IMG/VR virus record: IMGVR_UViG_3300027129_000004
Location: 24,107 to 88,106 of that record
DNA: 64,000 bases
Origin: a virus
Taxonomy: Duplodnaviria; Caudoviricetes
Direction: 5' to 3' (one strand)
In this document: one piece after another, positions 3,611 to 27,574 of the stretch
Layout: each line of letters opens with the position of its first letter
Numbering within the stretch: position 1 is the first letter of the stretch
Position numbers and translations under genes: made by a program
Notes under the pieces: model-generated
What the model saw: the letters and a program-made list of their open reading frames with translations, nothing else
What the model was told of the DNA's origin: nothing
Databases searched by the model: none

Positions 3611-4422
3611 CTAACCCAATTGAAGAACTAAAAGAAAAAATTGCTACGATGCAACATAACCTCAAAGTATTGGAGCAACTTGAAGCAAGCACAACAGATG
3701 TAGAAAAGGCATACAGGGATGCCTACGGACATTATCCAGAAACAAGTAGTTTTGCTGTAAGTGATTGGGATGTTATAAGTTGGGAAGCATTCCAGAAGGG
3801 TTATGAGGCAGCACAACCAAAAGAAGTTTCAGTAGAAGAACAAACAAAACCGATGGAGGAAGTTGTGGATAGGTTGGAGAACAAATGGAATTCTGCAGCA
3901 GAGAATTCTGCAGCAGAGAATTCTGCTTATTATATTACTGATGAAGTAGTTGATAGGTTGATAAAACAACAACAAGCACAAAAACTCTACAATAGATTGT
4001 ATGATGAACCAGAGCATTATGATGAAGTGGAGTGGGATGAGAAGGATAATCCAAAACCTATGAATGAGGTTCTGGATAGGTTGGAGAATAAGTGGAATTC
4101 TGCGACAGAGAATTCTGCTTCTTATATTACTGATGAAGTTGTGAATAGAATGTTGAAGAAGTGGGAGGAAAATCCACCAGAGTTCTTGAAGTTTGAGTTG
4201 GGGGAAACCCTAGAAACCCGAATTTATAAGTGGTGGACTACTTGCTATAGCAAACACTGGACTATTGATGAGTGTACTGCAGATTTACTGGATATTGTAG
4301 AATTATTTCTTCCACGAGAACAATCGGCAGAGGGGTCTCAAAATATCAATACCGAAGTTGCTGTAGAAGCACATAATGAACTTTTGCAGAAAATCAAATC
4401 AAAATTGAGGAATAAGAAATGA
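3607..4422 (+). CDS. hypothetical protein with internal repeats, mosaic family member
   Basis: 271 aa; KPM.EV.DRLENKWNSA.ENSA.YITDEVV twice; 15-bp tandem GAATTCTGCAGCAGA. Confidence 0.8.
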   Translation: MTNPIEELKEKIATMQHNLKVLEQLEASTTDVEKAYRDAYGHYPETSSFAVSDWDVISWEAFQKGYEAAQPKEVSVEEQTKPMEEVVDRLENKWNSAAENSAAENSAYYITDEVVDRLIKQQQAQKLYNRLYDEPEHYDEVEWDEKDNPKPMNEVLDRLENKWNSATENSASYITDEVVNRMLKKWEENPPEFLKFELGETLETRIYKWWTTCYSKHWTIDECTADLLDIVELFLPREQSAEGSQNINTEVAVEAHNELLQKIKSKLRNKK

Positions 4423-6081: not shown

Positions 6082-6241
6082 AAACAAACTGAAAATTGAA
6101 CAAGAAGTGATTGATGACCTCTATTTTCAAATGAATGTCAATAAACCAAAAAAAAGATCCCAACAATTACTTGAAGAAGGTCTAATCAAAAAGGCATATT
6201 TGATGGGGTATTATGAATGTGAATGTAAGAACCAAAAATGA
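6074..6241 (+). CDS. hypothetical protein (55 aa)
   Basis: hand-translated MTENKLKIEQEVIDDLYFQ..., overlaps neighbours. Confidence 0.6.
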   Translation: MTENKLKIEQEVIDDLYFQMNVNKPKKRSQQLLEEGLIKKAYLMGYYECECKNQK

Positions 6242-7646: not shown

Positions 7647-7919
7647 ATGAACAAAGAACCACTCCAAGCAAAAGTATCCGACGAAGATTACCAAAAACTT
7701 CTTGATTACTTCAAAACTCAACTTGTTCAATCGGTTGTACCCAACAACCCTTTGAGTAAGGTTCAACAAACACGAACCATCTATTCCAAAATCAAAGAGA
7801 AAAATGTAGTAGAAGGTCTGGTTTCTTTTGATGGTGAAGAACCTGCTTGGGTTCCGATTGAAACCATCAACGGGATTTATTCCTTTATCAACAAAACCTT
7901 TGACAATTTTAACATTTGA
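7647..7919 (+). CDS. hypothetical protein
   Basis: 90 aa, directly after the promoter. Confidence 0.7.
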   Translation: MNKEPLQAKVSDEDYQKLLDYFKTQLVQSVVPNNPLSKVQQTRTIYSKIKEKNVVEGLVSFDGEEPAWVPIETINGIYSFINKTFDNFNI

Positions 7920-7928
7920 TAGTATAAT
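7900..7928 (+). promoter_or_regulatory. sigma70-type promoter for tRNA-Cys
   Basis: TTGACA-17 nt-TATAAT perfect consensus. Confidence 0.8.
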
Positions 7929-7939
7929 CGTCTGGTGCT

Positions 7940-8016
7940 GTGTCTGTGGACCGAGTGGTGAAGGCAACCGTCTGCAAAACGGTTAATCAACGTGGGTTCA
8001 AATCCCACCAGACACT
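7940..8016 (+). tRNA. tRNA-Cys (GCA)
   Basis: acceptor GTGTCTG/CAGACAC, anticodon arm ACCGT-CTGCAAA-ACGGT, T-arm GTGGG-TTCAAAT-CCCAC, U discriminator; no encoded CCA. Confidence 0.9.
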
Positions 8017-8054
8017 CTTATAAATTATGAGGCACTAAAGGAACTGAAATACAA

Positions 8055-8204
8055 ATGAGTGAAGACCTAATCTTCTATACAAATGGTAAAGAAACGTCCC
8101 GTATTCCTTCTCCAACTCTTGAAACTCTTACTCTTGGAACCAAAACACCAGAAACTAAACTTGAAATAGAAAAAACAATGGATAAAGAAGATACTGATAA
8201 ATAA
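8055..8204 (+). CDS. hypothetical protein (49 aa), possibly truncated homolog of the 3068 N-terminus
   Basis: IFYTNGKETSRIPS...GTKTPETKLEI vs IYYKNGEETFRISP...GTKCPETKLEI. Confidence 0.55.
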   Translation: MSEDLIFYTNGKETSRIPSPTLETLTLGTKTPETKLEIEKTMDKEDTDK

Positions 8205-8263
8205 TAGTGCTTATGTGTGTCGCAACCATAGCAGAGATTGGGTGCTTTCGGGCACCTTTTCTT
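8197..8263 (+). ncRNA. candidate late small RNA antisense to the endonuclease leader (with its promoter and terminator)
   Basis: ATAAATA, hairpin whose loop is complementary to 8276-8295, then GGTGCT-TTCG-GGCACC-TTTTCTT. Confidence 0.5.
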
Positions 8264-8264
8264 G

Positions 8265-8272
8265 TATAAATA
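8265..8272 (+). promoter_or_regulatory. T4-type late promoter
   Basis: TATAAATA 28 nt before the ATG. Confidence 0.75.
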
Positions 8273-8300
8273 CTATTGCGACACAACATAAAGCAGAACT

Positions 8301-9089
8301 ATGGAACTCAAAGAGTATCACTATGTTTATTATTCCTATGAGGAATATGGTAGAGGATATTTTGGTAGTAGAACTTGTAAATGTTTACCAGAAGATGATG
8401 TAAGATATTTTGGTTCTTACAGGGATAAGACATTCAAACCAACTCAAAAGATAATCTTGAAAAGTGATTATGCTACAAGAGAAGAGGCATATGATGATGA
8501 GATTACTTTACAAGAATATTATAAAGTAGTTGAAAATCCACATTTTTCTAATAGGGCATATCAAACATCTACAAAATTTTCTTATATAAGACCAACAGAA
8601 CAAGCAAGAGAAATTGGAAAAAAATCTGGATTAAAAGTAAAAGAACTTGGATTGGGATTTCACGCACTCACAAAAGAACAATTAAGTGAAAATTCTAAAA
8701 AAATGGTAGAAAAACATAGAAAAACTGGAACTGGTTTATTTACTTTAACTAATGAACAAAGAAGTAAAGGTGGATTAAAAAATAAAGAACAAGGTTCGGG
8801 AATTTTTTCTTTAACGGAAGAAGAAAAACAAAAAATAAGAAGTGAAGCAGGAAAAATAGGAGGGAAAAGGGCAGCAGAACTGAAAGTAGGTGCTCACGGA
8901 AGAACAAAAGAACAGATGAGTGAGGATGGTAAAAAAGTATCAAAATCAGTAAGAATACAAGCAGGAAAAACAACAAGTTCTCAAAGATGGATGTGTCTTG
9001 AAACAGGACATATTTCTACACCAGGAGGACTTTCAAAATATCAAAAACATAAAGGAATAGATACTTCTAGAAGAATAAGAGTATCATAA
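8301..9089 (+). CDS. GIY-YIG (Seg-like) homing endonuclease
   Basis: HYVY...GYFGSR, conserved E and N of the GIY-YIG domain; basic C-terminal repeats (G.G...LT.EQ). Confidence 0.75.
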   Translation: MELKEYHYVYYSYEEYGRGYFGSRTCKCLPEDDVRYFGSYRDKTFKPTQKIILKSDYATREEAYDDEITLQEYYKVVENPHFSNRAYQTSTKFSYIRPTEQAREIGKKSGLKVKELGLGFHALTKEQLSENSKKMVEKHRKTGTGLFTLTNEQRSKGGLKNKEQGSGIFSLTEEEKQKIRSEAGKIGGKRAAELKVGAHGRTKEQMSEDGKKVSKSVRIQAGKTTSSQRWMCLETGHISTPGGLSKYQKHKGIDTSRRIRVS

Positions 9090-9148
9090 AGGACACTTGA
9101 CGAACTGGAACAAGGTGCCTTTACGGGGCACCTTTTTTGTTGTATAAT
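9089..9148 (+). promoter_or_regulatory. early promoter element overlapping a terminator-like hairpin
   Basis: AAGGACACT-TGACGA-ACTGGAACA, AAGGTGCC..GGCACCTT-TTTT, TATAAT. Confidence 0.7.
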
Positions 9149-9169
9149 ATGAGAAATCAAAGGAACATT

Positions 9170-9475
9170 ATGGAAGATAGATTTTATCCAGATGAAATGT
9201 TTGAAGTTGCTGAACGAAGGGAGAAGAGTAATCGTGTTCTCCAAAGGTATAATGACTACTACAATATGGAGTGTGAATCATTACCAACTGGAGGACCAAT
9301 TAGTATGATGCATATGCAAGCAATTGCATTACAATCTGCAATTGATGCTCTGCGTTGCGAAAACCTGAATCGTGAGTATAATGAAATCGCAATCTCTGAT
9401 ATTGAGGATTTGATTGAACGATTGTATCAACAGAGTAATGAGTATCTTGAACGAGTGAGGAAACTGAAAAAATGA
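9170..9475 (+). CDS. hypothetical protein
   Basis: ATG with AAGGA RBS within ORF 9137-9475. Confidence 0.7.
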   Translation: MEDRFYPDEMFEVAERREKSNRVLQRYNDYYNMECESLPTGGPISMMHMQAIALQSAIDALRCENLNREYNEIAISDIEDLIERLYQQSNEYLERVRKLKK

Positions 9476-9490
9476 CTTACTCACCAAACC

Positions 9491-9549
9491 TGTGACACTT
9501 GTGAAACTGGCACAAGACCCCACCAATCCCCCTGTGGATGCCCTATAAT
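9491..9549 (+). promoter_or_regulatory. early promoter element
   Basis: TGTGACACT-TGTGAA-ACTGGCACA, 29 nt, TATAAT. Confidence 0.8.
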
Positions 9550-9571
9550 AGTCTCATATTCAAAAAGAGCA

Positions 9572-9835
9572 ATGACTGCTTCCAATCTTTCTAAAATCAA
9601 ACCTAAACTTCGCACTCAAGGCTCTGTATCTGGGAACTTTGGTAGGGCAAAAGTTAAAGCAGGTTCTCCTTTGCGTGATATTGGAATGACCGATGCAAAA
9701 GTAGTTAAAGTTTGCACACAAGAAGATTATCTGAAGAGACTCTATCTTGCATATGAGACAACTGAAGATGCTAAACTGAAAAAGTTTGTATTTTCTGAAA
9801 TTAAAAAGATTCTAATCCAACGAGGGGAATGGTGA
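9572..9835 (+). CDS. conserved cyanophage hypothetical protein
   Basis: SNLSKIKPKLRTQG.VSGNFG motif, recalled from cyanomyovirus early genes. Confidence 0.75.
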   Translation: MTASNLSKIKPKLRTQGSVSGNFGRAKVKAGSPLRDIGMTDAKVVKVCTQEDYLKRLYLAYETTEDAKLKKFVFSEIKKILIQRGEW

Positions 9836-10017
9836 GTAACACTGTTTACGCATATTCAGAAGTTGAACGTGCTTACAAGATTCTTAAAGAACTTGCAGAA
9901 CGTGAGAATAAACTTCATATGATGGATATGACCATCAATCTCCAGCATCTTGATGTTATTCAATACGAGATTCTTCCTGCACTGGAAGAAATCGTTTATT
10001 TTGACCCAACTCCTTAA
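9829..10017 (+). CDS. hypothetical protein
   Basis: 62 aa, GAGGGG RBS. Confidence 0.65.
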   Translation: MVSNTVYAYSEVERAYKILKELAERENKLHMMDMTINLQHLDVIQYEILPALEEIVYFDPTP

Positions 10018-10037
10018 TTGTCTACATAGGTATAACA

Positions 10038-10096
10038 ATGGACAGTTTTTTCACTGTCCATTTGCACTTGATTACGCACCGAAAGGGTGCTATGAT
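10038..10096 (+). promoter_or_regulatory. early promoter element (covariant arms)
   Basis: ATGGACAGT-TTTTTC-ACTGTCCAT perfect inverted repeat, 29 nt, TATGAT. Confidence 0.75.
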
Positions 10097-10240
10097 TACG
10101 AAGTAAATCACTCAAATGATGTTCGACACATTCAATTTTACTGGTGATGCCACTACCTTTATTGGTTTGGTTGGTGTTATTAGCACTGCTGTTATTGTTA
10201 TTACTGTTTTCCGTTCTTACTGGTCTAGTCCTTATCGCAA

Positions 10241-10462
10241 ATGAATTATTCAAAATCCATTCAAGAGTACGAAAAAGAACTCAAAGAAGCAAAGAAAAAG
10301 TTTGATAAACTCTCAAAGCAATATAAAAAGTGTAGAAGTGTTTATCAAGCAGAGATGATGTACGATGACCTAACAATTCTGAATGAAGATATTTCTGAAC
10401 TTCAGATGATTGTGAAGGAACTGCGTCAACAAAAGAAACTTGCCGAAATTGATGTTGTCTAA
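10241..10462 (+). CDS. hypothetical coiled-coil protein
   Basis: 73 aa heptad pattern. Confidence 0.7.
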   Translation: MNYSKSIQEYEKELKEAKKKFDKLSKQYKKCRSVYQAEMMYDDLTILNEDISELQMIVKELRQQKKLAEIDVV

Positions 10463-10464
10463 TT

Positions 10465-10695
10465 ATGTCTGACCTTTATACTGAAATCTTGGTGTTTAAC
10501 AAAATGTCTTTTAATCGTGAGCAACTTGTTGAGGATTATATCCAGCAAACGATTGGAGGAATGGATTATAAGACTATGGAACGTTTTGTTTATGATACTT
10601 TGAAAGATAATCTAGCAGATTATAATGATGAAGAATTGATTACAGAGGTTACAGACTACTACCCAGAATTGTTGGAGGATGTTGATACTCTGTGA
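10465..10695 (+). CDS. hypothetical acidic protein
   Basis: 76 aa; stop TGA lies in the palindrome left arm. Confidence 0.7.
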   Translation: MSDLYTEILVFNKMSFNREQLVEDYIQQTIGGMDYKTMERFVYDTLKDNLADYNDEELITEVTDYYPELLEDVDTL

Positions 10696-10749
10696 CACTT
10701 GTGGCACTGGCACACTAAAAGATCACAGCACCTCAAATCCTGCTATAAT
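10691..10749 (+). promoter_or_regulatory. early promoter element
   Basis: TGTGACACT-TGTGGC-ACTGGCACA, 29 nt, TATAAT. Confidence 0.8.
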
Positions 10750-10956
10750 TACTTCGTAATCAATCAACACCATGTTAGTCCTTGATTCTATTGGTTTCTA
10801 CGATAAGTTTCAAAATTATAATCTAATCCTAGATTTTTCTGGTCGTTGGGTAGAACATTATAATTATATGATATCTCCTTTTAATGAAAAATGGATAAAT
10901 AAAACCTATCAAGATGAGATAAGGCAAAATCGGTTTTACGATGTTTGATTGTGCCT

Positions 10957-11015
10957 TGTGCCACTGATTCTTCTGGCACATAACACTTTACAGACCCCAG
11001 AACCTGTGCTATGAT
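10957..11015 (+). promoter_or_regulatory. early promoter element
   Basis: TGTGCCACT-GATTCT-TCTGGCACA, 29 nt, TATGAT. Confidence 0.8.
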
Positions 11016-11043
11016 GTATTCATCAAGTCAAGGAGGTTTCAAG

Positions 11044-11187
11044 ATGATTGACACTTGTGTTCTTCACGATGATTACGAGGACTTTGCTAAAAAGTTTCTC
11101 GGTGTTGATTATGAGGACTTTATTGGTCTTCAACTTGGTCTTCCCGATGAAGATGAAATTGAAATTGAATACTCTTTAAGTATTTGA
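11044..11187 (+). CDS. hypothetical acidic protein (47 aa)
   Basis: AGGAGG RBS; MIDTCVLHDDYEDFAKKFLGVDYEDF... Confidence 0.65.
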   Translation: MIDTCVLHDDYEDFAKKFLGVDYEDFIGLQLGLPDEDEIEIEYSLSI

Positions 11188-11272
11188 TTTCATTTGGAAC
11201 GGGTTTGCCAATGGGTTGGAAATATCTAACCAATAAAGTTACCCATTTTTCGTTCCCTTGACTTTTCATTAA

Positions 11273-11503
11273 ATGTCTGCTAAACTGATTGCTCTTGCTT
11301 CCGAAATCGTTGATACCAACCCTGCTGCTGCTCAACTGATTGTTAGTCTGACTAAAGCAGAAACTGGTGCTGAACTCATCGAAGCACTTGATAACTATGA
11401 TTCCACCGTGCTTGAGAACTATTCTGAACCTGTGGATTCTGAAGATGAAGATGAAGGTGAAGTGACTCTCACCGATGCAGATGGTATTGTAACTTCTGTT
11501 TGA
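11273..11503 (+). CDS. hypothetical acidic protein
   Basis: 76 aa. Confidence 0.7.
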   Translation: MSAKLIALASEIVDTNPAAAQLIVSLTKAETGAELIEALDNYDSTVLENYSEPVDSEDEDEGEVTLTDADGIVTSV

Positions 11504-11541
11504 TTTTTGATTCTTTAATTTCTTAACCAACTAATTTTATT

Positions 11542-11793
11542 ATGGCACGTCGCAACAAGTCTGCATCTCGTCAAATGGTTGAAAATCTTCAAGAACAACT
11601 TGTTGAGTATTTTCAAGAAAACATCTTTGATGATTGTGATTACGAAGATTTGACTGGTTCTGACCTTCTTGAAGCACTGGTTGGCACTTTCCGTGAACTG
11701 GAAAGTGAAATCCAAAAGAAAATGAACCCGATTCAGTATGTGCTAAATAAAATTGACCCAGAGGATTCTGAATCTCAAGTCCTTAACGGTTAA
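11542..11793 (+). CDS. hypothetical protein
   Basis: 83 aa. Confidence 0.7.
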   Translation: MARRNKSASRQMVENLQEQLVEYFQENIFDDCDYEDLTGSDLLEALVGTFRELESEIQKKMNPIQYVLNKIDPEDSESQVLNG

Positions 11794-11878
11794 TTCTTAC
11801 GGGCATCAAAGGTCCAAACTTTGAATAAGACCCACACCCTCTATGCCTCTTAACAATGCACAAACCAGAGGGTCTCTT

Positions 11879-11951
11879 GGGCATATGGTGAAGTGGATTA
11901 TCACACGGCTCTTCTAAAGCCTTATCCCTGGTTCGAATCCAGGTATGCCTG
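11879..11951 (+). tRNA. tRNA-Arg (TCT)
   Basis: acceptor GGGCATA/TATGCCT, D-stem GTGA/TCAC, loop CTTCTAA, T-arm CCTGG-TTCGAAT-CCAGG. Confidence 0.9.
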
Positions 11952-11956
11952 TTTAA

Positions 11957-12029
11957 TATAAATAATAGTGCCTGAGTTGGGTGCAATCTTCACAGGTAAG
12001 ATAGTGGGGGCAGAAATGTCCCCTCTTCT
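11957..12029 (+). ncRNA. candidate late small RNA antisense to the endonuclease leader (with its promoter and terminator)
   Basis: TATAAATA, GTTGGGTGCAAT complementary to 12042-12053, GGGGGCA-GAAA-TGTCCCC-TCTTCT hairpin. Confidence 0.5.
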
Positions 12030-12031
12030 AA

Positions 12032-12039
12032 TATAAATA
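12032..12039 (+). promoter_or_regulatory. T4-type late promoter
   Basis: TATAAATA 25 nt before the ATG. Confidence 0.75.
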
Positions 12040-12064
12040 CTATTGCACCCAACAAAGAGCAGTT

Positions 12065-12640
12065 ATGAAAGGTACTATTTATTGTATCCACTGTATTTCC
12101 ACTGGAGAGAAATATATTGGACAAACCAGAAGAAGTATACAAGATAGACTAAGATATCACAAATACGCATCTGCAAAAAGTTCCAGAGCAAAATTATACA
12201 TACAAGCAAATAAAACTGGATGGGATGATTTCATAATTGGGATTGTTGAGCAGTGTGAGGTCAATCAATTAAATGGAAAAGAATGTTTTTATATTGAAAC
12301 ATTTAATACTTTAGAAAAAGGACTGAATAGTTCTCCAGGTGGAGGAAAATTCCCAGTTATGAAAGGAAAATTGCACCCTTTGTTTGGAAAAGGACATAAA
12401 AAGGAAACAAAATTAAAAATAAGCAAAAATCATCACAATGTCTTAGGAAAAAACAATCCAAGGTCAAATTATTATGAAGTTGAATTTTTAAATGGAAAAA
12501 AAGAAACTGTTCATTGTTTGACGGAGTGGGGAAGAAACAATGGATACAAAAAACAAAATTTATTTAATTTAGCTTGCAATCTCCAGAAATCACCTCACAA
12601 AGATATTTTAAAAATTACTAAAATTCAAAATGAAAGTTAA
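12065..12640 (+). CDS. GIY-YIG homing endonuclease with NUMOD3-like motif
   Basis: TIY...YIGQT..R...H, E, GLN; HPLFGKGHKKETKLKIS. Confidence 0.85.
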   Translation: MKGTIYCIHCISTGEKYIGQTRRSIQDRLRYHKYASAKSSRAKLYIQANKTGWDDFIIGIVEQCEVNQLNGKECFYIETFNTLEKGLNSSPGGGKFPVMKGKLHPLFGKGHKKETKLKISKNHHNVLGKNNPRSNYYEVEFLNGKKETVHCLTEWGRNNGYKKQNLFNLACNLQKSPHKDILKITKIQNES

Positions 12641-13403
12641 AGTAGCATCAGATTTGCACCTTGAATTTTTAAACTCTTTTGAAGAAATTCCAAACTTAGG
12701 AACTGCTGATATATTAGTGCTGGCAGGAGATATATTTCCAGCAAAGTATTTAAAAACAAATGGAAAATTAAAAGACATTTATCTTCGTTTTGTGGATAAA
12801 TGTTCAAAAGATTTTTCACATATATTATATGTTCTTGGGAATCATTGCTATTATGGATACAATTACGAAGGAAGTAAGAGGAAAATAAAAGAGCATCTTC
12901 CTCATAATTTCCAAATCCTTGACAATGACACAGTTAAGATTGGAGACTGGAACTTTATAGGTTTCACTCTCTGGACTGACTTTAGAAATGAAAATGCTCT
13001 AGAGATGATGGAAGCAGCACAAGTGATGAATGACTACAAAGTTATTCGTATTACTCCAAAGTATCGGAAACTGAATCCAACTGACACTCTTAATTTTCAT
13101 AAGGATAGTAAGAAGTATCTGTTGAATCAACTACAAACACTCAATGACAATGTATTTGTCATCAGTCATCATGCACCGAGTTATCAATCGGTTCCACAGC
13201 AATTCAAGAAACACGCAAATGGTGCCTATTGTAGTAATCTGGATGATTTGATTGTTAATCATCCACAAATTAAATACTGGGCACACGGACACACTCACAC
13301 TGCTTTTAATTATATGATTGAAGGTTGCCGAGTGATTTGTAATCCTGGTGGGTATCCTGGACAAGGAACTGGATTTAATCCAGATTTACTTTTTGACATC
13401 TAG
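12630..13403 (+). CDS. calcineurin-like metallophosphoesterase
   Basis: SDLH, LAGD, GNH, SHH, HGHTH motifs. Confidence 0.9.
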   Translation: MKVKVASDLHLEFLNSFEEIPNLGTADILVLAGDIFPAKYLKTNGKLKDIYLRFVDKCSKDFSHILYVLGNHCYYGYNYEGSKRKIKEHLPHNFQILDNDTVKIGDWNFIGFTLWTDFRNENALEMMEAAQVMNDYKVIRITPKYRKLNPTDTLNFHKDSKKYLLNQLQTLNDNVFVISHHAPSYQSVPQQFKKHANGAYCSNLDDLIVNHPQIKYWAHGHTHTAFNYMIEGCRVICNPGGYPGQGTGFNPDLLFDI

Positions 13404-13451
13404 ATATAAGGAAGGTAGAATCTTCCCACACATTAAACTCGCAAAAGGTCG

Positions 13452-13928
13452 ATGGACTACTTAAAAATTGAACCAAATCAAACTATTCTTGTTCTAAACG
13501 CATCCTATGAACCAATTAACTTTACTAATTGGAAAAGAGCAATCGTGCTGCTTATGAAGAACAAAGCACAAGCACTTGGTAAGAGAGTCATTCGACTGGT
13601 CAATTACATTAAGTTGCCCTACGAGAAACTAATGCAAAATAGACCATCACGAGCAATGATTTATAAACGTGATGGTCATAAGTGTCAGTATTGTGGTTCG
13701 ACTAAAGAACTAACTATTGACCACATCATCCCACGTTCTCGTGGTGGTGAAGATACTTGGGAAAATCTTACTGTTGCTTGTATGCCTTGCAACTCTAAAA
13801 AAAGTGATAAACTTCTTGAAGAAACTAATTTGTCTCTTCGCACTATTCCAAAAAAACCACTGAATAAGATGCTATTTGCTCTCGATAGAGCAAATGACCC
13901 AGAGTGGAATGAATACTCTTATGCCTAA
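13452..13928 (+). CDS. HNH endonuclease (McrA/HNH_5-like)
   Basis: LVLNASYEP, RD...CQYC, TIDHIIPRSRGG..WENL..AC..CN. Confidence 0.9.
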   Translation: MDYLKIEPNQTILVLNASYEPINFTNWKRAIVLLMKNKAQALGKRVIRLVNYIKLPYEKLMQNRPSRAMIYKRDGHKCQYCGSTKELTIDHIIPRSRGGEDTWENLTVACMPCNSKKSDKLLEETNLSLRTIPKKPLNKMLFALDRANDPEWNEYSYA

Positions 13929-25834: not shown

Positions 25835-25884
25835 AGTTTTGTCCCAAAACCCCCTATAAATAACCCTAGTTTTGGGACAAAACT
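25835..25884. repeat. 16-bp perfect inverted repeat enclosing a late promoter
   Basis: AGTTTTGTCCCAAAAC ... TATAAATA (25855-25862) ... GTTTTGGGACAAAACT. Confidence 0.85.
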
Positions 25885-25885
25885 T

Positions 25886-26050
25886 ATGAGACCACAAAAG
25901 TATAAGAATTTGGGTGAAACTGAAAGAATGAGAGTGCCCTTATGCAAACAACTTACACGTTTGTGTGATGCATTAGATAAAAAGGCAGAAGATGGATATG
26001 ATGTCGTTGAGATATTAGATTCATTTATTGAGAGTATCAAGGACATATAA
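25886..26050 (+). CDS. small putative ribbon-helix-helix-like DNA-binding protein (54 aa)
   Basis: MRPQKYKNLGETERMRVPLCKQLTRLCDALD...; GET...RVP shared with 17560. Confidence 0.6.
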   Translation: MRPQKYKNLGETERMRVPLCKQLTRLCDALDKKAEDGYDVVEILDSFIESIKDI

Positions 26051-26492: not shown

Positions 26493-26671
26493 TTATAATA
26501 GACAGTTATTTTATGTTGTTTGTTATTCTTATACCTAACCGTTGCCCCCCCCGGTATATAATTTTAATGGGTCCTTCAAGGCTACACCGAACCGAAAACG
26601 AGAGAGTAATTGTCTTTCAAATAAAAAAATTTTTCCAAAAAATTTTTCCAAAAAAGTTAAAACATAAAATT

Positions 26672-27574
26672 ATGAATTACCCAGAAGGAACTATTAAGAC
26701 AAACACCCAAGGAAACAAATACATCAGAAAAGATGGAAAATGGGTATATATGAAAAAACCAAAAGAAGAAAGGAAAATATCAAAGGAAAATCCCAAAAGA
26801 GTTGTTTATAATTATCCCCCCATAAGATTGTCCGAAAATATGAGAGAAACTCAATATCCTGGGTATTATATCACTGAGGACGGGAGAGCATATCGCAAAC
26901 CTGGAAAATATGATAGGAATGGAAAATACGGAGAAATTAATGAAAATGGGTTAATATATCTAAAACCTGCGTTCAGGGGACACTCAAAATATCCAGAACA
27001 TCAATATGAATGCATAAACATCTCAATGTATGATGAAACTGGAAAGTATAAACAAATTAAAAAATCAATTCATCAATTAGTTGCGGAAGCATTTATTCCT
27101 AATCCTGAAAGACATAGTGAGATATTACACATAGATGGAAATAATAGGAATAATCATTATACAAATTTAAAATGGGGAACACATAAAGAAAACATGGAGA
27201 TGGTTGGTTTACCAGAAGGGAGTATTAGGAGAGCAAAAGGAAAGTCTAGTGATTATATCAAAAAAGATGGTGAGTGGATTTTAATTCCAAAAAATACACC
27301 TCCATGGAATAGGGGATTGAAAGGAGTATCATGGAATACATTACCTGATGGAACTGTTACAACAAGAAAAGTAAATGGAAAACCTGGAACTTTCATAAAA
27401 CAAAATGGTAAATGGGTTTACCAGACAAATAATCCTAAGTCTAGAGGAAAGAGTTTTAAAGAAAATAAACCAAAAAGAAAACCACTACCCGATGGAACTA
27501 TTAGAACTCGTGCTGATGGTACTACATGGGTAAAGGAAAATGGTAAATGGGTTTATCAAAAAACAAAAAAATGA
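26672..27574 (+). CDS. HNH homing endonuclease (NUMOD4/HNH_3-like) with four P(E/D)GT...K.GKWVY repeats
   Basis: IHQLVAEAFIPNP....ILHIDGN..NNH.TNLKW.T.KEN; first ATG after the A-tracts. Confidence 0.8.
   Translation: MNYPEGTIKTNTQGNKYIRKDGKWVYMKKPKEERKISKENPKRVVYNYPPIRLSENMRETQYPGYYITEDGRAYRKPGKYDRNGKYGEINENGLIYLKPAFRGHSKYPEHQYECINISMYDETGKYKQIKKSIHQLVAEAFIPNPERHSEILHIDGNNRNNHYTNLKWGTHKENMEMVGLPEGSIRRAKGKSSDYIKKDGEWILIPKNTPPWNRGLKGVSWNTLPDGTVTTRKVNGKPGTFIKQNGKWVYQTNNPKSRGKSFKENKPKRKPLPDGTIRTRADGTTWVKENGKWVYQKTKK

Follow-up and report, generated by a model that had tools for sequence, protein, structure and literature searches.

Nucleotides 11957-12064 of the window, by which we mean the whole 64,000-nucleotide stretch analysed here (bases 24107-88106 of the 88,106-bp phage contig IMGVR_UViG_3300027129_000004, G+C 34.8%), hold a short module, labelled M5, that carries two complementary arms and stands before a homing-endonuclease gene, and we consider it somewhat better than an even bet that this module is a portable cassette that controls the expression of free-standing homing-endonuclease genes in freshwater cyanophages of the T4-like (Kyanoviridae-type) kind. 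The parts of the module family follow one another in the order of a promoter-like box N[A/C]TAAATA (P1), a CCUGA...UCAGG hairpin with the variable 5' arm, a terminator hairpin, a second box TATAAATA (P2), the 3' arm, AGAG-YAG, and the ATG. Four sister modules of the same contig are labelled M1-M4; the arms of the five, 9-15 bp long, are all different, and every module stands before a homing-endonuclease-like gene. M1, M2, and M3 are located 5' of the window, with their second boxes at contig positions 6107, 7694, and 10067, and TATAAATA occurs eight times in the contig, always on the plus strand, with six of these occurrences in the five modules.

All the words that a sequence-only reading had picked out at 11957-12064 are present there base by base, and the scaffold words that it had matched to the module near 8197 (M4) are common to the two: in the window, TAAATAATAGTGC has exact matches only at 8198 and 11959, and TATAAATACTATTGC only at 8265 and 12032. 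As that reading had also said, the two nucleases are unlike, since the products of 12065-12640 and 8301-9089 share no BLASTP similarity (E 5.1). A repeat search made independently of it returned the perfect 12-nt inverted repeat 11976-11987/12042-12053, with 54 nt separating the arms. The whole window holds five perfect inverted pairs of at least 12 nt with arms within 100 nt; a single 12-nt inverted repeat is not rare there and has no weight alone, and for this reason the case for the module rests on its family. Taxonomically, the contig encodes T4-type baseplate wedge, neck, and tail-sheath-stabiliser proteins, which identify it as a T4-like myovirus, and its closest named relatives are the Kyanoviridae phages B3, B23, and S-SRM01, at an identity of only 65-80% and over short parts only.

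A family of modules with matched arms

Relatives of M5 were gathered from IMG/VR by two pattern scans, the first fixing P1, CCTG, and P2 and the second only TCAGG, TATAAATA, and AGAGYAG, which gave at least 191 loci; the family counts are among the matches listed. An exact arm complement of at least 9 nt was found in 83 of the 124 matches listed for the first pattern, and one of at least 8 nt in 73 of the 109 distinct matches listed for the second. Selecting on the scaffold only (TAAATA-N6-CCT-N40-72-TATAAATA-N10-40-ATG) yielded 134 distinct sequences among all gathered loci, 125 of which have at least 9 of 11 arm positions paired (79 at 11/11, 43 at 10/11, and 3 at 9/11); the remaining nine are without other module features, and arms combined from different modules pair mostly at 6-8 of 11 positions. 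Seen from the leader, 98 of 112 distinct NATAAATA..AGAGYAG..ATG leaders have an exact upstream complement of at least 8 nt, the other 14 being either modules with G.U interruptions or non-modules. Between the end of the 3' arm and the ATG lie 9-13 nt in 95 of 110 modules.

Covariation was assessed on a MAFFT alignment (A1) of 126 modules, namely the 125 that passed the 9-of-11 filter plus M4. The claim that seed and target had changed together, made originally for M5 and M4, extends to the whole alignment: each of the nine core arm pairs shows changes in both partners, and a single position may hold as many as five pair types. The core helix is 93.7% paired, a percentage that is somewhat circular given the filter (which removed only sequences without module features), as the covariation counts are not; none of 500 shuffles (0/500) reaches the named structure, and sliding the partner by 1-3 columns lowers pairing to 40-51%. 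When Watson-Crick matches alone fixed the register, the mispairs inside the helix that had two good pairs to either side numbered 60 G.U/U.G, 1 A.C, and 12 others; many of the 60 are one conserved G.U (CUG vs UAG), and several others recur at different helix positions. Under a constraint on DNA or on an opposite-strand RNA, A.C and G.U would be expected equally often, and it is therefore the sense-strand RNA that pairs. Thus, the arm pairing is real, acts at the level of sense-strand RNA, and is kept by compensatory change, and the helix exceeds the seed as first noted, with CUG-A-arm facing arm'-U-YAG over ~14 bp.

An opposite-strand RNA and a DNA cruciform were also considered and rejected, as the sense strand folds better (−40 vs −32.8 and −38.1 vs −34.7 kcal/mol) and the mispairs are G.U, not A.C. 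For the read-through RNA of M5, the fold has a z-score of −4.13, vs −3.15 for the other strand.

Genomically, the association with mobile endonucleases that the sequence-only reading had proposed holds when the downstream genes are tabulated: 98 of 107 downstream open reading frames (ORFs) of at least 40 amino acids (aa) fall in five homing-endonuclease-like families, those of M1-M5, and the others include a TnpB-like ORF and a NUMOD-type protein. The former belongs to a module at 3847-3960 of a 243-kb IMG/VR contig (L075), which has the arm TTGGTTCGCA and precedes a 398-aa ORF starting like an IS200/IS605-type TnpB, a label that is a by-eye reading of the first residues alone. The proposed portability was likewise found, in that one arm occurs behind different upstream genes and before different nuclease families. 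Arm CTGTAAGTCGCA is present in 5 upstream clusters and with 4 gene families, and arm ACTTGGTGGTT in 6 clusters and with 3 families, and identical upstream sequence plus arm is also paired with different nuclease families. The cassette recombines on both sides while arms 55-65 nt apart stay matched, and the 110 core modules hold 55 distinct 5'-arm strings. That the arm might belong to the nuclease gene or to the insertion site was rejected, given that the same arm comes with several genes and at several sites.

The family is widespread in uncultured phage contigs, where it is tied to nuclease genes. Among cultured phages, S-SRM01 has at least four copies and Synechococcus phage B3 one; the pattern scan of named phages gave three of the copies in S-SRM01 and the one in B3. 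A blastn search of M5 against 50,697 phage records returned no match, short queries with variable arms being insensitive in such a search, and S-SRM01 was the sole match of the M3 and M1 modules; another family member returned only a 37-nt chance-level match to a Fusobacterium phage (E 0.08).

Several individual copies depart from the common layout or are notable for their placement. In one contig (L030, plus strand, ~2085), 13-nt arms flank TATAAATA, and a single nucleotide separates the 3' arm from the ATG of a nuclease gene in the M1-like family. The TAAATA box, the CCTG hairpin, and a clear terminator are missing; this variant may be intermediate between the simple T4 form and the full cassette. 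In another (L028, plus strand, ~3020), the module lies directly 3' of a tRNA-like end (GGTTCGAATCC...), as in M5, and the placement of both beside tRNA genes recalls T4 segB. A contig from an RNA library (run X1) matches M4 as far as 8282, beyond which it has the 3' arm and leader of the M3 type and the first part of an HNH gene; this is either a natural module recombinant or an assembly crossing at the shared scaffold.

Candidate promoters, a predicted translational mask, and its rivals

Structurally, the most constant parts outside the arms are the two boxes. TAAATA stands exactly 6 nt before CCT in 108 of 110 modules, and in matches to the second pattern, which did not ask for it, 5-7 nt before CCT in 71 of 73, the two exceptions being one TATATAA and one non-module. 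From the second box to the 3' arm, the distance is 3-5 nt in 104 of 110 modules. In the 126-row alignment, P1 and P2 share the layout TAAATA-N4-pyrimidine-purine: of 126, position −1 of P1 is T in 118 and C in 8 and position +1 is A in 68 and G in 57, and P2 has T in 107 followed by G in 108 or A in 16. The invariance of the P2 TATAAATA in the 126 modules is by construction, since the searches required that box. Of the 126 modules, 75 have A and 51 have C directly in front of the P1 TAAATA, so that the box reads NATAAATA or CTAAATA. The Aeh1 late promoter CTAAATA begins at −12 (PMC1524935), so that by this rule the predicted start falls on the same purine in the cassette boxes, and NATAAATA is a cyanophage late-promoter motif (PMC2984593). 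Words of the form N[A/C]TAAATA also occur in the contig 20-40 nt upstream of its genes for baseplate, neck, and sheath-stabiliser proteins; these genes are without the full TATAAATA. The M5 box TATAAATA has no −35 element, and no sigma-70-like site was called at the module.

Between the boxes, the local stem is 93.6% paired in the family, with all 26 of 26 one-sided changes retaining a standard pair. The hairpin that follows has a predicted energy of −8 kcal/mol or lower in 124 of 125 modules, and at least 4 U in the 8 nt after the predicted last helix in 65 of 125, an undercount in that the fold often pairs part of the U-run. A terminator scan called this element in M4 (8240-8257), not in M5, whose tail TCTTCTAA has 4 T in 8. 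From these sequence features we infer that P1 and P2 would act as late promoters and the hairpin as a terminator; if both boxes fire, one RNA would begin at the foot of the CCUGA hairpin and another inside the 3' arm.

Mechanistically, we rank first, with a probability of roughly 0.55, a T4-style translational mask with a nested late promoter and a terminator. In the T4 genes e, soc, 49, I-TevI/II/III, and segB and in Aeh1 mobE, upstream transcripts form a leader helix that hides the ribosome site, and a late promoter in or just before this helix gives transcripts that are without its 5' strand and are translated (PMC3014915, PMC2988022, and PMC2330249). In the cassette, the variable 5' arm would pair with a 3' arm that would form the first 11-14 nt of the late mRNA. 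Transcripts from upstream (for M5, from the tRNA-Arg unit, which would be expected to read into the module) would meet the intrinsic-terminator-like hairpin as a first barrier; in those that read through, CUG-A-arm would fold onto the 3' arm as a 12-18 bp long-range helix ending 5-10 nt before the AUG, and this helix would cover or abut the weak AGAG ribosome site and leave the nuclease untranslated. Transcripts from P2, which lies between the arms, would start in the 3' arm and so be without the 5' arm, with an unstructured and translatable leader. The net effect would probably be a nuclease output that is held low. The 5' half, with its own late-promoter-like box at a fixed 6 nt 5' of the hairpin and its conserved local stem, probably has a function of its own and may also act in trans as a ~55-nt RNA.

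Energetically, the long-range helix is the predicted fold of the read-through RNA from each of the five modules, at −34 to −44 kcal/mol, and for M5 the read-through RNA reaches −40 kcal/mol vs −1.8 kcal/mol (z +1.22) for the leader that would start at P2. The layout follows that of the T4 masks, with a late-type box just 5' of the gene (P2 of M5 stands 25 nt 5' of the ATG), the 5' arm upstream of the predicted late start, and the 3' arm in the leader. In the predicted M5 fold, the 5' side of the helix reaches 11970-11973 (GCCU), and the extra pairs of the 3' arm extend to AGAGC at 12056-12060, the only stretch there that resembles a Shine-Dalgarno (SD) sequence, 5 nt before the AUG; the AUG itself is not reached, and the consensus helix of the family ends at UAG. 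The helix would presumably block ribosomes. Read-through past the terminator is plausibly needed for a downstream phosphoesterase gene of M5, because the homologue of that gene in phage B3 belongs to an operon of small genes that no nuclease gene precedes. In metatranscriptomes, 20 runs contained part of 7800-13500, four of which were compared, as assembled contigs without starts, ends, or strand; one contig from an RNA library (run X1, 195 nt) spans 11989-12183, from the hairpin through P2 into the gene, and may be carried-over DNA. The stretches left uncovered by these contigs, most of M4 and M5 among them, weigh neither for nor against transcription.

Several points weigh against this mask. 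The helix excludes the AUG, and its commonest form in the family covers only the first bases of AGAG, so that the ribosome site is predicted to be less well masked than that of T4 e or I-TevI; moreover, a block of initiation by such a helix in cyanobacteria is a proposal. P1 and the CCUGA/UCAGG stem are needless for a pure cis mask, yet they are among the best-conserved parts. An efficient terminator, if such it is, would let few transcripts ever form the cis helix. Finally, the RNA contigs give no transcript start, end, or level, and the bridging contig of run X1 is possibly DNA.

The conserved P1 and local stem are parts that a gene for a small RNA (sRNA) would need, and the sequence-only reading took the 5' half to be one, an explanation that we regard as possible but on the unlikely side. 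Such an RNA would start from P1 at the purine before CCUG and end at the terminator after 46-70 nt (median 55); the seed in its loop would pair in trans with the very first nucleotides of the P2 mRNA, and the pairing would spread to ~14 bp beside the ribosome site. Repression of the nuclease would then scale with the number of phage genomes, after the manner of IS10 RNA-OUT and RNA-IN. This action is compatible with the cis mask and could occur in addition to it or instead of it. The T4 mask, a precedent that the sequence-only reading had not considered, explains the covariation equally well. A separate RNA is supported by the conservation of P1 where the search did not require it, at a fixed spacing and with the same layout as P2; by P1-type words that precede structural genes of the contig and match published late-promoter variants (PMC1524935 and PMC2984593); by the conserved local stem and the co-folding gains of the cognate pairs given below; and by folds of the sRNA alone, where CCUG forms the 5' side of the stem in 121 of 125 and the 3' hairpin is present in 124 of 125. 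Pairing of a loop with an mRNA 5' end is, in addition, the documented mode of IS10 (PMC4513863). Against these stand the predicted sRNA itself, which is unobserved (the RNA runs being contigs without starts or ends), and the arm, which has 60% or more of its bases unpaired in no more than 75 of the 125 folds of the sRNA alone; half of the M3-type arm lies in the local stem. Both RNAs would come from one promoter class at the same, late time, which makes the timing of the nuclease hard to account for, and no target was found without its arm in cis, and no arm away from a target. The conservation of P1 may also owe something to its overlap with upstream stop codons in some copies, as in M4, where it overlaps the stop codon of the ORF 8055-8204.

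The orthogonality that the sequence-only reading attached to the cassette stood in part. Cognate pairs are predicted to be far stronger than most non-cognate ones, with a net co-folding gain of −8.6 to −19.6 kcal/mol in the five cognate pairs and of −0.4 to −6.7 kcal/mol in 19 of the 20 non-cognate combinations; for the twentieth, the M1 RNA on the M5 leader, the gain is −11.2 kcal/mol. The part that did not stand is selection for it within genomes, for which there was no signal: pairing at 11/11 occurs in 0 of 36 non-cognate within-contig pairs vs 3.8% of random between-contig pairs, and the seeds of one contig are not more different than expected by chance. A combined form, in which each cassette has a late ~55-nt RNA gene that throttles its own nuclease in trans by copy number while the same arm silences read-through transcripts in cis, is one that we entertain tentatively, at a little over one chance in three.

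Other roles for the paired arms fit less well than the mask. It is very improbable that the duplex activates, that is, that arm pairing in trans or in cis shields the mRNA 5' end from 5'-end-dependent decay and raises late output: the 3' arm does begin with base 1 or 2 of the predicted P2 transcript, which would make the duplex 5'-terminal, and the helix does stop before the AUG, but it abuts or covers the sole SD-like stretch, the leader structures documented for homing endonucleases are all repressive (PMC2988022), and the P2 leader alone has no inhibitory structure to open. Least credible of all is a seam at the DNA level only, a terminator/promoter cassette for recombination like the promoter-early stem-loops (PeSLs) that mark exchange points in T4-type phages (PMC4122927), with an inverted repeat that has no RNA role; the arms CTGTAAGTCGCA and ACTTGGTGGTT in several upstream contexts and before several nuclease families, and the change from M4 to an M3-type leader at 8282, would suit it, but a constraint on DNA would tolerate G.U and A.C equally (60 vs 1 here), hypervariable arms that keep their complementarity (55 strings in 110 modules) are unlike a protein-binding site, and PeSL promoters are of the early (sigma-70) type while the cassette boxes are of the late type. 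A seam role is disfavoured as the sole explanation and can coexist with an RNA role.

Genomic surroundings of the modules

Table 1 Features of M5, of M4, and of the genes behind the modules of the contig (positions in the window).
Feature	Position	Strand	Remarks
M1 gene			80 aa; phrog_15526, annotated as unknown function; GIY/YIG-like words by eye, no Pfam GIY-YIG match
M2 gene			phrog_314, homing endonuclease
M3 gene			phrog_655, annotated homing endonuclease; weaker matches to HNH endonuclease families
M4 module	8196..8303	+	GATAAATA 8196-8203; 5' arm 8209-8225; terminator 8240-8257
M4 module, 3' part		+	TATAAATA 8265-8272; 3' arm 8276-8294; ATG 8301
M4 gene	8301..9089	+	262 aa; C-terminal half homologous to M2 and M3 nucleases (E 4e-32, 7e-29)
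tRNA-Arg(TCT)	11878..11952	+	ARAGORN; Rfam tRNA 58 bits
P1 box TATAAATA	11957..11964	+	late-promoter-like; predicted start G11970, 1 base before CCUG
ATAGTGC	11965-11971	+	word match
Local hairpin CCUG(A)...CAGG	11971..11996	+	CCTG 11971-11974, CAGG 11993-11996; loop holds 5' arm
5' arm (seed) GTTGGGTGCAAT	11976..11987	+	word match and repeat search
G+C-rich hairpin GGGGGCA-GAAA-TGTCCCC and tail TCTTCT	12006-12023 and 12024-12029	+	terminator-like
P2 box TATAAATA	12032..12039	+	canonical T4-type late promoter box; predicted start G12045, within 3' arm
3' arm (target) ATTGCACCCAAC	12042..12053	+	5' end of predicted late mRNA
AGCAG	12058-12062	+	word match; ATG at 12065
Homing-endonuclease gene, GIY-YIG and NUMOD3	12065..12640	+	191 aa; Pfam 28 bits vs cut-off 22.6; matches homing-endonuclease PHROGs: phrog_314, phrog_5123

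M5 begins 4 nt past the 3' end of the tRNA-Arg gene, and directly 5' of this gene and the module lies an Rfam match to the abiF RNA (RF03085; 11837-11873, plus strand) at 48.8 bits vs a gathering score of 37 (E 3.9e-7). The Rfam scan of 7800-12300, at E values up to 10, placed no family over 11957-12064 except SSRC38 at E 8.8, and otherwise returned only tRNA, abiF, and chance-level matches. Downstream, a calcineurin-like phosphoesterase gene (12630-13403) begins within the 3' end of the M5 nuclease gene. The homologue of this phosphoesterase gene in phage B3 (56071-56856) has a small overlapping ORF in front and no tRNA, module, or nuclease, and this locus looks like an empty site for the M5 cassette.

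Around M4, a sigma-70-type promoter with 12 of 12 matching positions (TTGACA-17-TATAAT; 7900-7928, plus strand) stands just 5' of a tRNA-Cys gene (7940-8017); it is likely an early promoter, whose transcripts would run into M4. The N-terminal half of the 262-aa M4 protein matched no Pfam family. Two HNH endonuclease genes of the window, at 13452-13928 and 26513-27574 on the plus strand, are without a module, and thus the cassette is not universal among the nucleases of this phage. A simpler element lies at 25835-25884 (plus strand), where a perfect 16-bp inverted repeat holds TATAAATA (25855) in an 18-nt loop and has a 3' arm separated by one nucleotide from the ATG of a 54-aa ORF (25886-26050). 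This layout, without a terminator or a second box, is like the plain one of T4 gene e.

Relation to known systems and biological meaning

Our literature search, with supplementary annotation outside its scope, found no description of this cassette, and the words promoter, terminator, and small RNA are absent from the S-SRM01 genome paper. Its closest known counterparts are the T4-family masks described above, whose nested promoter is of the late or middle class. As in these, a late promoter of the TATAAATA type lies between or over inverted-repeat arms before a homing-endonuclease gene, the late transcripts are without the 5' arm, the long upstream transcripts are predicted to fold shut, and some copies, like segB, are in a tRNA gene region. 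Unlike the T4-family masks, the cassette is one exchangeable unit found with at least five nuclease families in more than 100 contigs; its arms lie 55-65 nt apart around an intrinsic-terminator-like hairpin, its 5' arm is in a conserved hairpin of its own behind its own late-promoter-like box, and its 3' arm is the very start of the mRNA and does not reach the AUG, whereas the T4 arm contains the SD sequence and the AUG.

From the perspective of selfish elements, the nearest parallels are IS10, in which the loop of RNA-OUT pairs with the 5' end of the transposase mRNA, blocks the 30S subunit, and scales with copy number, and IS200, whose left end combines a terminator against impinging transcription, an SD-sequestering stem-loop, and the art200 sRNA (both in PMC4513863). 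What they share with the cassette is a selfish nuclease or transposase gene guarded by a terminator, a leader structure, and possibly a loop-pairing sRNA, and the complementarity between a loop and an mRNA 5' end is present in the cassette. However, RNA-OUT and art200 are opposite-strand antisense RNAs with 35-90 nt of complementarity, whereas both arms of the cassette are on the plus strand, so that the complement is same-strand, upstream, and only 11-14 nt long, and its small RNA is predicted only. Fold-back inhibition of read-through transcripts in IS10 was reportedly described by Davis, Simons, and Kleckner in 1985.

Two phage systems share less with the cassette. PeSLs are seams of terminator plus early promoter at gene junctions of T4-type phages (PMC4122927) and resemble it as a short conserved composite of stem-loop terminator and then promoter that lies at junctions in plastic regions and coincides with module exchange; unlike the cassette, they carry early sigma-70 promoters, stand before all sorts of genes, and have neither covarying long-range arms nor a link to nucleases. 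CfrI of cyanophage S-PM2, an RNA of ~225 nt that was detected experimentally and is antisense to an endonuclease gene and psbA (PMC2984593), is likewise non-coding, comes from a T4-like cyanophage, and is linked to a homing-endonuclease gene, but has no likeness to the cassette in sequence or layout. What is known, then, is that a homing endonuclease can be guarded by a leader helix in which a late promoter is nested; what is new is one exchangeable and widespread cassette for unrelated nucleases, the terminator it encloses, the second promoter-like box and hairpin, and the large compensatory series.

Homing endonucleases shape the mosaicism of phage genomes, and control that protects their carrier has been known only from a handful of T4-family cases. 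Here, the T4 logic is packaged as one exchangeable unit that serves many unrelated nucleases, and at least one TnpB-like gene, in a group of freshwater (lake and river) cyanophages, and it comes with a natural compensatory series large enough for defining pairing rules. If the sRNA exists, it would answer a question raised in a review of T4 (PMC3014915) on trans-acting regulatory RNAs in T4-related phages, and the family would amount to a natural collection of sRNA-leader pairs, dozens of them and mutually distinct (55 arm strings), each for one selfish nuclease, that would constitute the first functional trans-acting sRNA system of T4-like phages and a same-strand counterpart of IS10 antisense control. 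Such pairs would also be ready-made orthogonal RNA-leader combinations for engineering. Because S-SRM01 is cultured and has its several copies, the cassette is directly testable.

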